Made by a program: the position numbers
Part shown: positions 55,701-61,700 of the stretch, in pieces
How the letters are laid out: every line of letters begins with the position of its first letter
Position numbering within the stretch: the first letter of the stretch is position 1
Origin: a virus
Lineage: Duplodnaviria; Heunggongvirae; Uroviricota; Caudoviricetes
Reading direction: 5' to 3' (one strand)
IMG/VR virus record: IMGVR_UViG_651053023_000001
Coordinates: 32,001 to 96,000 of that record
DNA length: 64,000 nt

Positions 55701-58700
55701 TTACTTCCACCACCTGGCAAAGGTGCATTAACAGAGCACTGGAACGAGTTTAACCTTGCCTGTGACACTGATGCTCCCATCACTCCAGTTATTGATATGG
55801 TGCGCCAGTTGTCCGGCATTTACACCCTCTGGTTTGTAACCGGGCGCTGTGAGATAGCCAGGGATAAAACACGAGCCTGGTTGCGTAAGCACGTAACAAA
55901 TGGGGCGGAGCCTTTGCTATCTATGCGTCCTGCCACCGATGACAGAAATGACGGTCCAGCAAAGATTGATCTCCTGAAGAAAATTGGTCTAAGTAAAATT
56001 GCGTTCGCGCTGGAAGATAAGATTGAAGTGGCGCGTGTTTTCAGGAGTCAAGGCGTACTTACGTTAATGGTCAGGGAGTATGAAAACGCGCTTCTCCATC
56101 AACAATAATTGCTCTAATAAATCTTGATTTTTAAAACAGAGAAAGTGAAAATAAAAACATGCCGTAAGGCGCGGCATGTATCCAATCAATCACAGGAGCT
56201 GAAAATATGAACACGGCATTCAAAATCATTATGGCCGCGATCTATTTCTGGCTGTTCTCTATCACTTTTGGCGGCATCGTCGCGCATGGGTAAGGGGGAT
56301 GCATGAAAGGCGAAGTGAAAGAGCGCGGCATGATTTTCAACGATGAGATGGTCCGAGCCATCCTCGAAGGAAGGAAAACGCAGACGCGGCGGATAATGAA
56401 AAATCAGCCTGCGGAAGTTGGTCCAGAAGCACCAGTGATGGTTAGGGAAATTGGTGCAGGTTTTCAGTGGTACGGGGCTGATGGTGTAAGCAGTGTTTTC
56501 AATTGCCCCTTTGGTATCGTCGGCGATCGAATTTGGGTTCGTGAAACATGGGCGATATTAGGCAATGAGGATGGTTGCAGTGTGGACTGGAACGACAACC
56601 TTTGTCGTGGCGATGAGAAGAACGCAGCAAGGATTTATCGGGCCAGTTGCGAGCAAAAACCTGGTGATTACGGCTTATGGTCGATACCCGATGATGCCGA
56701 CTGGAAACCTCACACTGTGAATGAAAAGTTTGATGGTGGGTGGCGTCCATCAATTCACATGCCGCGATGGGCATCACGCATTCTGTTGGAAATTACCAAC
56801 GTGCGCGTTGAACGGTTGAACGATATCAGCGAATGCGATGCAAGGGCTGAGGGCGTTCCGCCTGCTGGAAGTTTGCTTCCTGATCACCCGGGAACATTCC
56901 TTACTCCCAAGGGGGATTTCGCAATGGCCAAGGTTGCGTTCCAGCGCCTGTGGGAATCCATCTATGGTGAAGAAAGCTGGAACGCTAATCCCTGGGTGTG
57001 GGTAATCGAGTTTAGGCGCATTCAGGAATAAACCGTGAGTATGCATCAAATCGTCAGTTTTTCAGGTGGACGAGCATCAGCCTGTCTCGTTCATCTGTTC
57101 GAATAGGTAGTGGCATGACAATCGTAAAAACCCATACCGGCACCGTGATCACCAAAGACGGTCCGCAGGTAAAAAAACTGCACCAAACAGAGCGGATGTG
57201 GGTCGTCGGCAAAAATGAGTTTTACCACAAAGATACCGGACGCCGCCACTTTGCAGAAAATACGCGCCGTCGACTGCTGTTAGACACCATCAAGCCTATC
57301 GAGGTGAAGCATGTTTAAACAGAACGAAAAAGCTATCGCTCAAATTGCTGATTATATCCCGCGTGCGTGCCGGGGTATGCAGTTGCAGGAAGCCAAAGCG
57401 CGCCTGGAGAAAAAAATTGCGCTCTATATTGATGACGGCTGTGATGCTGCCGTTCTTAACGCGGCGTTCGCACCAGCTCTTAACAGTCATACTCGGGAGT
57501 CTTTTTTTTCGTGCATCGAAGCGCAACTCCGCAAAGGAGGCAGCCAGTGAGCAAAATTAATTACCGGGCACTGCGTGAGATAGCAAAACAGGCAACACAG
57601 GGCGAATGGGTCGCATTTATTTCGCCGGGTACTGGTACGTATGCGGTGCATACGCCCGGTGATAAACGATGTGAAGATGTTATCAAATGGACCGGCTTTG
57701 ATGGGCTGAAAAACGCAGAGAACAACGCTCGTTATGTTGCCGCATTCAACCCAAAGGTTGCACTGGCGCTACTTGGTGAAATTAAGCGCCTGGAGGACAC
57801 AAATATTGATGCTATGTGCCGAATAGCACCGCTTGAGACTAAGCTCGCGGCGCTGGTGGCAGAGAACGCCGGGCTGAAACACGCAATGGCCGTAACTCTT
57901 GAGCATGTGTCGGTCACGGATGCAGGGCAGGCTGGTGTTGCTGCAATGATTATCAACGATGCCCTACACCACAGCGAAACTCCAGCTACCGATGCTTTTC
58001 TGGCTGAAATTCGTGCGGAAGCACGCAACGAGGGGATTAACTATACCGCCAGCCGTCTTGCTGCTGCGTTCAATCACGGATTTATCAATAAGTCTTTGCG
58101 TGAAGTTTTCGACGTTACACGCATGATTTTGTCAGCGAAAGAAGAGTTGGCTAATGAAGCGCATCCGATTGATGGCCTGTCTGGTGAATATGCGGAGAAA
58201 TCCCTTGAAGAATGGGCGGAACAGATTCGCAAAGGAAGCAGCCAGTGAATATCGACACGACAATAACGATCGATACGCTCCTAAATACCGGTCTGGCACT
58301 TCTCGGTTGGCTTTACATCATGTCCCGTACATGGCGATGGCTGGGTTCCATTTTCCTAAAACAGTGGAAAAAACGGCGCAAACAGGAACTACGCCAGAAG
58401 GCATTAGAAGCGTTCTATGACGCATTTGAGCTTAGCCGCATTGAACCAGGTACAACAGCCAGGATAGCGACAAAAGGCGACCTGATGATAGTGATGTTCC
58501 GACAGGAGAGAGCAGAGAAAGGGGAATCAGCATGAAATTTTCCAAATTTTCTGAGTTGGTGAATCGTATTTTGTCCAACAACCACAGCCATCGTCGCGAT
58601 ATGGATGTAACAATCGTTGTTCATTCGCCTGGCAGCATTGGTTCAACACCTTCAGTTGAGGTTCAGTCAATTCACGCTGGTTTTGATTGGGATTCCGGGA

Positions 58701-61700
58701 AAGTGCTTATTTTCCCATCACAGCCACTGACCACGCTAACACCAGAACAGATTACTGATATCACTGATAGTGTGCGCAAAGGTCAGTCTTGGCACGCATA
58801 TCAGGAATACAAGAAGCATCAAGAGCAGTTGGAAAAATTGTCGATTGAACTGGATGCCGCAAAACAGCGCATTGCAGAGCTGGATGGTAATCGCACGGCG
58901 CTGGCAGTGGAGAATGCCTCAATGAAGCTGTTTATCAGGGGCTGTTGCTACGTGTTTGATGGCCAGCAGGATGAAATATCTGATGCGTATATCTGCGCAA
59001 CAGACGGAGGGATGCCGCAAATTCCAGCCACCGACGCTTTCCTGGCTGAAGTTCGGGCGCAGGGGGTGGATGCTGCTATAGAAGCTGCAAAAAATCTGGT
59101 GGCCCAAGAATATGAGTATAAGGATTTCAAAGCGGCGCAGAGTGATTGCTGTATGCACCCTGGTTCAGACCTGGTAGGGAAGGTTGAAATGACTGAGTGG
59201 TTAGTTGACTTTTCTGCCCAGCTTCGCAAAGGAGGCAACCAGTGAGCAAGATTGATTATCAGGCACTGCGTGCTAAGGCAGAAAAAGCAACGTGTGGCGA
59301 GTGGTCGCTCGAATATGGAAAGAGCCGATTTGATGGTGATGATGCGCTAATTCATCGTGAAGTTGCTGGATATATTCCCATTTGCAGAATTGAAGGAGCG
59401 CATCCTGAAAGCGGTTTCGATGAAGATTTCCAAATAGAACAGCAGGCCAATGCTGAATTCATCGCCGCAGCCAATCCAGCTACCGTGACGGCATTACTGG
59501 ATGAACTGGAAAGAAACCAGCAATACATCAAACGCCGTGACCAGGAGAACGAGGAAATTGCGCTAACGGTAGGGAGGCTTCGCGTTGAGCTGGAAGGCAA
59601 AGACAGCAAAATAGCCAATCTTACCGCCGAACGCGATGCTCTTCGTGAAGGTGAGATGGGCGACGCTAGGCATAGCAACACACGGGCCGCAGCTGATATC
59701 TACTTCCAACTGGTCGAGGAGTGCGAAATTCCTGCTGGCGGATCTCTGGTCGAGTACGTTGACGATATGCGCGAGAAGCTGGAAGCCGCAGAGAAGCGCA
59801 TTGCAGAGTTAGAAAGTGGTTCTCAGGCACAAAAGTTAGTTGAAGCAATCATTGTTGCGATAGAAAACGAACAGGAAAGGCTTTTTGATGAAGATTACCT
59901 AATGGATTCGAAAGAATGCATTGACGTAATTCGTGAAGAAGTAAAGCGATGGAATGATTCCCGTGCCGCTGGCATTCGCATCAACGGAGGTGAGTAGTGC
60001 GTGTGGCATGTATCGGCTTGTTACCGTACCCGACTCGTTTTTGGGCTTCTGCGCTAATTGCAAAGCCACATGTCCTGATGGCTGACAACATCATCCCGGC
60101 ACCAAAGCGCCGCCATACCGGTATTGCAGCGGCACGACGAGCAGCAAAGAGACGCAGGAGAGCAAAGCGATGAAAAACCGTAAGGCAAAACGACTTTTTT
60201 TACAGCGACCTGTGCGTGTGGTGGAGCTGGTTATCAGCAACCATAAGATAGCTGTACTCCATCCATTTGGTCAGGTGGCTTTTACCGTAAATCGTAAACC
60301 CACCGCGTCACAGAACAGGCGGAAGAAAGGGTACGCTGTAAGATGAAAAACCGTAAAGCAAAGATTCTGTTAGTTCGTAGAAACGCTCCTGGCGTCTGGC
60401 AGTGGGTGAGACTCAGCAACCGACGGATGGGGTTGATGAAATATTACGGGATGATGGATTGTGGTTTTTGCAAAAAGCCCAGCGCGGCGCAAAACCGCTG
60501 GAAAAACCACTTGCGCACTAAAGGAGAGTGATATGGCGTTAACACACCGCGAACTCTGTCAGATTGCGTACAAGTTCCTTAAGCGCAACGGGTTCAAGGT
60601 TTGTTTTCATGACCGCTTTATAGCTGTAACCAGTACCGGAGAACAGCCAGATGCTATGGGATTCAGAAATTCAGCATCATGCCTGATAGAGGCGAAATGT
60701 TCTCGTGCTGACTTGTTGGCAGATAGAAAAAAGCGTTTTCGTAAAAATCCGTCTCTTGGAATGGGCGACTGGCGATTCTTTATTAGTGAGCCGGGAATTA
60801 TTTCAATTGAGGATTTACCACCTGGCTGGGGATTACTTCACGTTGTTAACGGAAGAGTACGGAAAGTACATGGGTGGCCCAAGGGTAATTGCTGTTGGGG
60901 TAATCCTGACGATAAGCCATTTACTGGAAATAAGCAGGTTGAATGCGATTACATGTTATCTGCATTAAGGCGTATGGAGTTGAGAGGGCACCTTAATGAA
61001 ATATATGACGGTGTAATTGTTAATAAGAAAGAAGGAAACGCGGCATGACCACTATTGCCAAAGATCGACTACTGACAATCAAGCAGTGGCGCGAAACATA
61101 CGGACCGGGTAGCAACGTTGTACTGCCAGCAGAAGAAGCGGAAGAACTGGCACGAATTGCTCTGGCATCGCTGGAAGCAGAGCCTGTTCTGTATCAGTCC
61201 TGCACTCGCCCCACTTGGAATAGTGGTGTTCCGTGGACGGAATGGAAAGAACGAAGTCGTGAGTGCTACGAAGACGATTTGCGCTTTACAGACACGCCTG
61301 ACCATGCCGGTTGGATATACAAATGTCGAAAATTATATACCACTCCGCCAGCGCCGATAGCGTTAGAGGCCATCGAAAACGCAATTGAATACATCCGCAG
61401 TATCGCTTTTCACATCGATGACGACGATTACCACGGTAAACATATTGCGTATTTCATGCGACAAGCATTGGCCTGGCTGGAAGGGCATTCATGCAGCGAC
61501 GACAGACTGGGTAAGGCCGACAATCAACCCGCATCTGGTAACCAGGCTGCCGAATCCAATCGCGGTAATGAGTGGACCGGCAATCCTGATATTGATAACG
61601 CCATCATCATGCTCGACCGCATAGATACGGCGGAAAGTTGCGATGATGACCGTATTGAGGCCGTTAAGGCTGTGTTGCGTAGACTGGCAGGCAACTATCC

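Follow-up and report, generated by a model that had tools for sequence, protein, structure and literature searches.

What makes three gene boundaries in a single phage operon read almost alike, and what is the shared sequence for? We address this question for a 64,000-nucleotide (nt) stretch of a caudoviricete genome (IMG/VR record IMGVR_UViG_651053023_000001, positions 32,001 to 96,000; hereafter, the window, in whose numbering positions are given), which represents a P1-type phage-plasmid. Five co-directional open reading frames (ORFs) on the + strand, orfA to orfE, occupy 57311-59997, and a 21-mer, CGCAAAGGAGGCAGCCAGTGA, recurs at three of their boundaries, without mismatches at 57530-57550 and with one mismatch each at 58228-58248 and 59225-59245 (repeat family D2). 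Probably, this junction is a boundary sequence that doubles as a translation initiation region embedded in the upstream gene and as a portable patch of homology. By origin, it would be a boundary sequence of lambdoid accessory early operons ('ea'/exo-xis type) that, in this P1-like phage-plasmid, has come to lie in the variable region at pmgT.

Anatomy and common ancestry of the junction

The three copies, each with a Shine-Dalgarno (SD) sequence ahead of an overlapping start and stop, are arranged as follows:

57513-57554, + strand: junction 1 (core 57530-57550), SD AAAGGAGG, 6-nt spacer, GTG of orfB over TGA of orfA
58211-58252, + strand: junction 2 (core 58228-58248), weakened SD AAAGGAAG, GTG of orfC over TGA of orfB
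59208-59249, + strand: junction 3 (core 59225-59245), SD AAAGGAGG, GTG of orfE over TGA of orfD

The start and stop codons overlap as GTGA in all three copies, and GGAGG ends 6 nt ahead of the GTG; the upstream proteins end in QLRKGGSQ (orfA), QIRKGSSQ (orfB) and QLRKGGNQ (orfD), followed directly by the stop. The first-pass annotation of this DNA had proposed this very arrangement, namely, three boundaries with a common sequence, the ribosome-binding site (RBS) of the next gene within the last codons of the preceding one, and a GTG start over a TGA stop, and all of it is borne out at each boundary. Exactly the same GTG starts are picked by the Prokaryotic Genome Annotation Pipeline (PGAP) in the plasmid pGF66.2-B (99.9% identical). 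The junction cores are 90-95% identical to each other, and junctions 1 and 3 share 89 nt at 78% identity. The 64-kb window contains no further copies of CGCAAAGGAGGCAGCCAGTGA with up to 3 mismatches, and none appeared in 100 shuffles.

The similarity of the junctions is greater than the encoded peptides require. The mean pairwise identity of the 27-nt junctions in the window is 0.877, compared to 0.658 ± 0.041 expected from the peptides alone, and 0 of 20000 peptide-only simulations reached the observed value, which disposes of the concern that the resemblance might be no more than a conserved C-terminal peptide predicts. We further scanned for the pattern with three sites that are free of SD and start constraint left degenerate (CGN, GGN, ARY). 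Among the 120 contigs listed, 90 were the canonical loci found before and 30 were new, non-canonical loci with a single change each. The free synonymous sites are thus canonical in ~75% of the cases (~90/120) vs 5.7% expected from local codon usage, whereas chance matches to the degenerate pattern in unrelated phyla carry scattered codons at these sites. Because the identity at synonymous sites exceeds the peptide expectation and the chance matches scatter, the copies of the patch share ancestry and have undergone ordinary drift.

Probable roles in cassette exchange and translation initiation

The junction joins many different genes. An exact-pattern scan of IMG/VR yielded at least 120 contigs, and 147 unique contexts of 421 nt were compared. 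Conservation across these contexts extends only from about -17 to +21 around the stop/start, with the flanks at background identity; the island reaches ~45 nt further only where the next gene has an Ead N-terminus. When the flanking proteins were clustered, the upstream C-termini fell into at least 6 unrelated families and the downstream proteins into at least 14, which are paired in at least 25 combinations. The upstream families include Ead-type cassettes, DUF2737 and the orfA family, and the downstream ones include Ead/Ea22, DUF7739, DUF7446, DUF4752, a methyltransferase, PAPS reductase and small membrane proteins. With a 42-nt query, the junction was detected in 2186 of the 5426 complete Escherichia coli genomes (~40%), at 3561 places (up to 10 per genome, 546 of them on plasmids), with 1 to 3 copies per locus. 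In a scan of one genome per species of bacteria and archaea, 19 matches were obtained vs ~17 expected by chance, and only two of these, in an Escherichia sp. and in a short contig binned as Sutterella, are genuine; hence the junction is essentially confined to Escherichia and its close relatives.

Comparison with relatives places the ends of homology on the junction itself and on three further patches inside the genes:

57977-58017, + strand: internal patch 1 (ETPATDAFLAEIRA), at the domain boundary of orfB before its variable C-terminal cassette (D3 repeat, 85% identity)
59019-59059, + strand: internal patch 2 (QIPATDAFLAEVRA), in orfD, the ATDAFLAE repeat
59476-59540, + strand: a third recurrent crossover patch, ALLDE-ERNQQYIKRRDQ, inside orfE, where homology resumes at 59476 in loci L001, L153 and L155 and at 59490 in L154

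The clearest case is pGF66.2-B, which matches the window at 99.9% identity over 56000-59249 and loses homology 4 nt beyond the TGA of junction 3. Past 59249, 226 bp of the window stand against 798 bp in pGF66.2-B, which encode a 214-aa protein and a different Ead N-terminus; identity returns at ~59476-59500, in the conserved LLDE-ERNQQYIKRRDQ (ERNQQY) segment, where a shoulder of partly identical sequence is visible. In three further plasmids, the breaks are at 57563, 57630, 57983, 58216-58248, 58509-58514, 59476-59490 and 59993. Locus by locus, the breaks lie at 59249 (L001), 58216-58248 (L154 and L155) and 57563 (L153). At junction 2, relatives break at 58216, 58236 and 58248; the ends of E. 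coli matches cluster exactly at 58248 (H40, H50 and H52), and other E. coli matches begin at 59216-59243 (H43-H48 and H60). Breakpoints at internal patch 1 are at 57977/57983, and homology past internal patch 2 ends at 59070 (phage Ro157c2YLVW) and 59071 (L155). The ATDAFLAE patch is a nucleotide island of ~45 nt with 3 left families and 9 right (C-terminal cassette) families; thus, a conserved patch stands on either side of each variable C-terminal domain.

The number and order of the cassettes vary as well. In L155, the orfD-like gene precedes the orfC-like (DUF4752) gene, the reverse of the order in the window, and L153 and L160 pass directly from orfA to one or two Ead genes. The proposal that the junction is a homology patch for module shuffling is, therefore, well supported by the excess nucleotide similarity, by the cassette variation among relatives and by the breakpoints located on the patch.

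A separate observation concerns phage Ro157c2YLVW (L002), in which the orfD homologue (4533-5225) continues across a variant of the junction (…AAQLRKGELHMMFDAGIHIKGEEHGNKTRR) and ends like the C-terminus of lambda Ea22; it looks like a fusion produced by a crossover inside the patch.

Under the reading that we consider probable, the initiation region of the downstream gene, that is, AAAGGAG(G), a fixed spacer of 6-7 nt and (G/A)TG over TGA, would lie within the last seven codons of the upstream gene, and the ~38-42-nt island, inherited by many unrelated gene pairs, would offer just enough homology for recombination by RecA or by phage enzymes of the Red/RecET type. The minimal homology for RecA and Red is ~30 bp (PMC2327257), and in lambdoid hosts such as the Stx phage PA2, phage recombinases are encoded directly upstream in the same operon. 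Crossovers at the junction could replace, add, delete or reorder whole genes and would automatically restore a working stop, SD and start; those at the internal patches ETPATDAFLAE(V/I)RA and LLDE-ERNQQYIKRRDQ could do the same for protein domains.

Several considerations weigh against this reading. Homology-driven crossovers at the junction, the enzymes that would carry them out and the degree of coupling are all inferred. Every locus compared carries the patch, so that homology ends at or beyond its edges by construction. The near-invariant core comprises only 21 nt, with a further 17 flanking nt partly conserved, which is marginal for RecA; some joints fall inside the patch, at the SD, and would fit microhomology-mediated or illegitimate joining followed by selection; and the upstream and downstream families are not randomly associated.

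The alternative that survives best is itself unlikely: that the boundaries converged, each gene of the tightly packed operon needing a strong SD at a fixed distance from an overlapping start and stop, that mosaicism arises by illegitimate recombination followed by selection, and that recombination does not involve the patch. An AAAGGRG-N7-ATGA grammar is indeed common to further boundaries of these loci that lack shared sequence (proteins ending in EKGESA, GKGEAS or LKGASV), nearly all boundaries in the window overlap, and part of the literature prefers illegitimate recombination as the general model (PMC3233612). However, convergence does not explain why conservation also extends outside the SD and the start (CGC, CAACCA, -17 to -1), why the free synonymous sites are so often canonical when matches from unrelated phyla scatter, or why two plasmids with 99.9% identity part precisely where the patch ends.

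Four-base ATGA and GTGA overlaps are found in translationally coupled gene pairs, for example, in the trp operon. The junctions resemble such pairs in that stop and start overlap and the SD, at a distance of 6 nt from the start, is embedded in the upstream gene. The first-pass annotation went further and posited strict translational coupling, which our results do not support. The predicted SD duplexes of orfB and orfE, at -11.6 kcal/mol, are stronger than any other in the operon (vs -5.6 for orfC), and no occluding RNA structure was found around the junctions when ±55 nt were folded and compared with shuffled sequences (z = +0.41, +1.58 and -0.29). An SD of this strength, unoccluded by structure, makes independent initiation possible and argues against obligatory coupling; the layout would allow re-initiation by terminating ribosomes, so that expression is probably, but not obligatorily, coupled.

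The tails of the upstream proteins show what is held constant. The closest 120 homologues of orfB share its C-terminal domain and end in RKG followed by SSQ, GNQ, ADK, GKQ, GDK, VQS, GSQ, GGQ, VIQ and other triplets, always at the same length; in DNA, these tails read CG(C/T)AAAGGAG, 7 variable nt and (A/G)TGA. The variable spacer goes with the downstream gene, and the SSQ form always stands ahead of DUF4752. Because AAAGGAG, the spacing and (A/G)TGA do not change and the tail residues do, the constraint is on the initiation region (SD, spacing, overlapping start/stop) rather than on the peptide, and the R-K-G-x-x-x-stop tail is largely an imprint of the initiation signal of the next gene.

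Accordingly, a function of (A)AQLRKGG(N/S)Q as a peptide, for example, as a tag for degradation or interaction at the C-terminus, with the nucleotide similarity a by-product of selection on the protein, is quite improbable. The near-invariance of R-K-G, usually preceded by A-(A/E)-(Q/E)-(L/I), and the placement of this segment in a terminal helix by a low-confidence AlphaFold model would suit a tag. Even between homologues with 77% identity or more, however, the last three residues differ without restriction, whereas the length, the SD and (A/G)TGA are kept; the tail occurs on at least 6 unrelated protein families; nucleotide identity is above the peptide expectation; and the conserved stretch runs from one codon ahead of the SD to the start/stop.

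The broader pattern x-K-G-x-x-x-stop (AAAGGRG-N7-ATGA) is found also at unrelated boundaries (the three tails cited above), at 58514-58535 and in other loci; therefore, C-terminal 'KG' tails in these operons tend to be SD imprints.

Genes of the cluster and the P1-type host element

The genes between which the junctions lie, together with the ORF that precedes them, are:

57115-57318, + strand: orfZ, 67 aa, phrog_1226 (PHROG match), function unknown
57311-57550, + strand: orfA, 79 aa, phrog_1344 (PHROG match, without a Pfam match), ending in …EAQLRKGGSQ-stop
57547-58248, + strand: orfB, 233 aa, Ead/Ea22-like mosaic (Pfam PF13935, 93.3 bits)
58245-58535, + strand: orfC, 96 aa, DUF4752 (Pfam PF15944, 143.8 bits), not paralogous to its neighbours, starting with VNIDTT…
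58532-59245, + strand: orfD, 237 aa, whose N-terminal domain is distinct (phrog_6026) and is followed by a coiled coil, the ATDAFLAE patch, a C-terminal cassette of the variable kind and the tail encoded by the junction
59242-59997, + strand: orfE, 251 aa, Ead/Ea22-like with a lambda-Ea22-type ERNQQYIKRRDQENE coiled-coil segment (Pfam PF13935, 99.8 bits)

Both orfB and orfE score above the PF13935 gathering threshold of 27 bits; orfD has no Pfam match and, like orfB and orfE, matches phrog_368. Separate segments of orfB are matched by 17 PHROG families, and the protein has more than 5393 homologues. Its alignment shows blocks for an N-terminal segment, for a coiled coil and for a C-terminal domain that varies, with a long helix at residues 69-120 in a low-confidence AlphaFold2 model built from a 15-sequence alignment (predicted local distance difference test (pLDDT) 46, predicted template modelling score (pTM) 0.24). 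The orfA protein carries the junction tail although it is unrelated to Ead/Ea22, and was counted as an upstream family of its own (U3). Searches of PADLOC and NCBIfam with ten cluster proteins returned no matches, and sequence searches of the Protein Data Bank (PDB) with orfE and orfD gave insignificant matches only. The N-terminal domain of orfD (58532-58780) weakly and non-significantly resembles, over residues 14-83, a 'multi-ubiquitin domain-containing protein' (E = 0.014, PDB 9d59).

The flanking genes had been described as partial paralogues with SKI(N/D)Y N-termini downstream of the junctions, and this is so in part. The orfB and orfE proteins are 32% identical across the N-terminal ~139 aa, and orfB and orfD are 24% identical across the C-terminal 170 aa, including the 41-nt ATDAFLAE patch (85% nucleotide identity); in contrast, orfA and the DUF4752 gene are not paralogous to the others, and the DUF4752 gene, with its VNIDTT… start, is what follows junction 2.

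The tandem arrangement of orfB, orfD and orfE as partial paralogues might suggest that a single Ead/Ea22 gene was recently duplicated in tandem in this plasmid and that the three junctions are remnants of this event. We consider this very improbable and reject it: the gene bodies, at 24-32% amino acid identity and without detectable DNA similarity beyond patches of 27-94 nt, are far more diverged than the junction cores, and the same junction links unrelated genes in thousands of genomes. Finally, a programmed frameshift or read-through site yielding fusion proteins, for which one could cite the strong SD-like element 7 nt ahead of an in-frame TGA, loosely like prfB, and a downstream frame that is open for 12 codons upstream of the orfB GTG, is scarcely credible and was rejected, given that the downstream gene is read in the -1 frame of its upstream neighbour, with no X_XXY_YYZ slippery heptamer, no stimulatory structure and no Rfam match in a scan of 55500-61500 at E ≤ 1.

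The backbone of the element is of the P1 type. The region 31525-50750 is 98.7% identical to phage P1 (dmt, ban … pmgS), and 55626-56997 corresponds to P1 83811-85182 at 97.2% identity (blastn), comprising pap, Op88 and the first 232 codons of pmgT; P1 homology picks up again at 61686-62026, from P1 85188. Two features of this region bear on the junction cluster:

56108-56124, + strand: C1 repressor operator Op88/OpmgT (ATTGCTCTAATAAATCT), intact and identical to the annotated operator at P1 84293-84309
56998-61685, + strand: lambdoid-type accessory cassette block, 4.7 kb, absent from P1 (blastn), which stands in place of 5 nt inside P1 pmgT

The PpmgT promoters lie immediately downstream of Op88, which is presumed to be the control point of the operon that holds the junction cluster. 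A scan of 56998-61685 detected no promoter-like or terminator-like sites on the + strand, the first good terminator downstream of the block being at 62605-62634, and almost every boundary in the operon, with or without the repeated junction, has overlapping stop and start codons; hence the block seems to be one C1-controlled polycistronic unit. The early-left operon of the Stx phage PA2 carries the same orfZ-orfA-Ead block, after kil-gam-recT-exo-ssb, and therefore the block belongs to the lambdoid 'ea'/exo-xis type. The pmgT-humD interval is highly variable region 8 of P1-like phage-plasmids (PMC9603915), and the cluster falls exactly within it; the published account describes the variability but neither the junction nor the lambdoid origin.

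Some further features of the P1-like backbone were noticed. The pmgT gene of P1 (309 aa, oddly overlapping pmgU; P1 84488-85417) looks like a deletion fusion relative to this plasmid, joining a 242-aa gene (window 56303-57031) to the C-terminal end of a 338-aa gene (61045-62061). A 4.9-kb nest of insertion sequences (IS) occupies 50756-55625, at the start of pap, with a pair of identical, directly oriented copies of an IS3-family element (from 50759 and 54325) around remnants of IS66-type and Mu/rve-type transposases; P1 bases 83811-83820 are present on either side of the nest, which suggests a target duplication. The longest pap frame (55551-56108, 185 aa) starts inside the insertion and exceeds the 168-aa Pap.

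A second junction, known boundary systems and biological meaning

The same loci contain a second boundary junction, an island of ~35 nt in which the protein end …(A)AGIRIKGE-stop is encoded by CGCATCAAAGGAGAGTGA(T/G)ATG. Across the collected loci (L003-L152 among them), there are 79 instances in 69 unique contexts, combining 12 upstream and 13 downstream families. Two copies are present in the window:

59975-59999, + strand: diverged copy at the orfE/orfF boundary, …AAGIRINGGE-stop, GGAGGTGAGTAGTG, at the end of orfE
60514-60535, + strand: canonical copy, …LRTKGE-stop, ACTAAAGGAGAGTGATATG, between orfH and a gene for a 171-aa protein that starts with ATG at 60533

A K/RGE motif ends all Ea22 proteins, and its significance has been called unknown (Dydecka et al., PMC7093339); this published motif is the peptide of the second junction, where its codons spell AAAGGAG and thus the SD for the gene that follows.

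Nearby, orfG and orfH (60170-60346 and 60343-60531) are tandem paralogues (37% identity, phrog_1380) that begin identically, with GATGAAAAACCGTAA(G/A)GCAAA; this is a further repeated boundary of small size.

A more far-reaching idea, which we put forward as doubtful, is that the junctions, the sister …IRIKGE-stop/SD/ATG sequence and the ATDAFLAE and ERNQQY patches together form a standardised set of adaptors, maintained for in-frame exchange with restoration of the expression signals. If so, unrelated temperate lineages, namely, lambdoid prophages and P1-like phage-plasmids, would use it to swap accessory genes and domains of their early operons, and the set would be a recombinase-independent, homology-based counterpart of integron cassettes in ~40% of E. 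coli genomes. The junction cassettes resemble those of integrons (attC) in being promoter-less genes in one operon, exchanged as units at a repeated boundary. They differ in that the boundary forms no structured imperfect palindrome and lies inside coding sequence, that no integrase is found among the neighbouring genes, and that the exchange would proceed by general, not site-specific, recombination.

The phenomenon as such is already known in lambda-like phages, and the junction is a clear and very widespread example of it. Boundary sequences in lambdoid phages belong to the modular model of Susskind & Botstein 1978, with support from Clark et al. 2001 (HK620), as related in PMC3233612 and PMC2327257; the short-conserved-sequence model of mosaicism is described in PMC3233612. 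The likeness lies in a short conserved sequence at gene boundaries, non-homologous flanks, mosaic joints located on it and a proposed role of homologous recombination. Measured against the ~30 bp that suffice for homologous recombination (PMC2327257), the junction has 21 near-invariant nt and ~38-42 partly conserved ones. No paper containing RKGGNQ or the junction DNA string was found in the searchable literature, which does not include Clark et al. 2001. What is added here to the lambdoid linkers is how widespread the junction is (40% of E. coli genomes), that it coincides with the SD, spacer and start, that the conserved tail is an RBS imprint, the link to the K/RGE motif, and the transfer into P1-like phage-plasmids.

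The junction is also related to the homeologous 'shoulders' of phage recombination (Martinsohn et al. 2008, PMC2327257; De Paepe et al. 2014, PMC3945230), which consist of short or diverged similarity at the flanks, as seen at 59476-59500; the left-hand site here, unlike the shoulders, does not show diffuse divergence: it forms a sharply delimited, almost identical island that recurs between many pairs of genes. With respect to the exo-xis region and Ea22 of lambda (PMC7093339, PMC10834534), orfB and orfE are family members with a probably swappable C-terminal domain, and the orfZ-orfA-Ead block follows gam-recT-exo in PA2; the mosaic architecture of Ea22 (N-terminal segment, coiled coil, variable C-terminal domain) has already been published (PMC10834534) and would suit both proteins. 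The context is different, being P1 pmgT, where control would be exerted by P1 C1 at Op88 and not by lambda CI at pL, and the C-terminal cassettes are unlike the solved lambda domain, with no sequence match in the PDB. The pro-lysogenic function of Ea22 is known only for the lambda and Stx proteins, and orfB and orfE are members by sequence.

For work on these proteins, the conserved C-terminal motifs of the Ea22 family, including K/RGE, are relevant to structural and functional studies as RBS imprints, and for genome annotation, the junction aids gene callers in placing GTG starts in these operons. More generally, the junction provides a countable test case in the debate on mosaicism, that is, homologous exchange at boundary sequences vs illegitimate recombination with selection, and points to a route by which accessory genes are shared between lambdoid prophages, including Stx phages, and P1-like phage-plasmids, which are vehicles of resistance genes.

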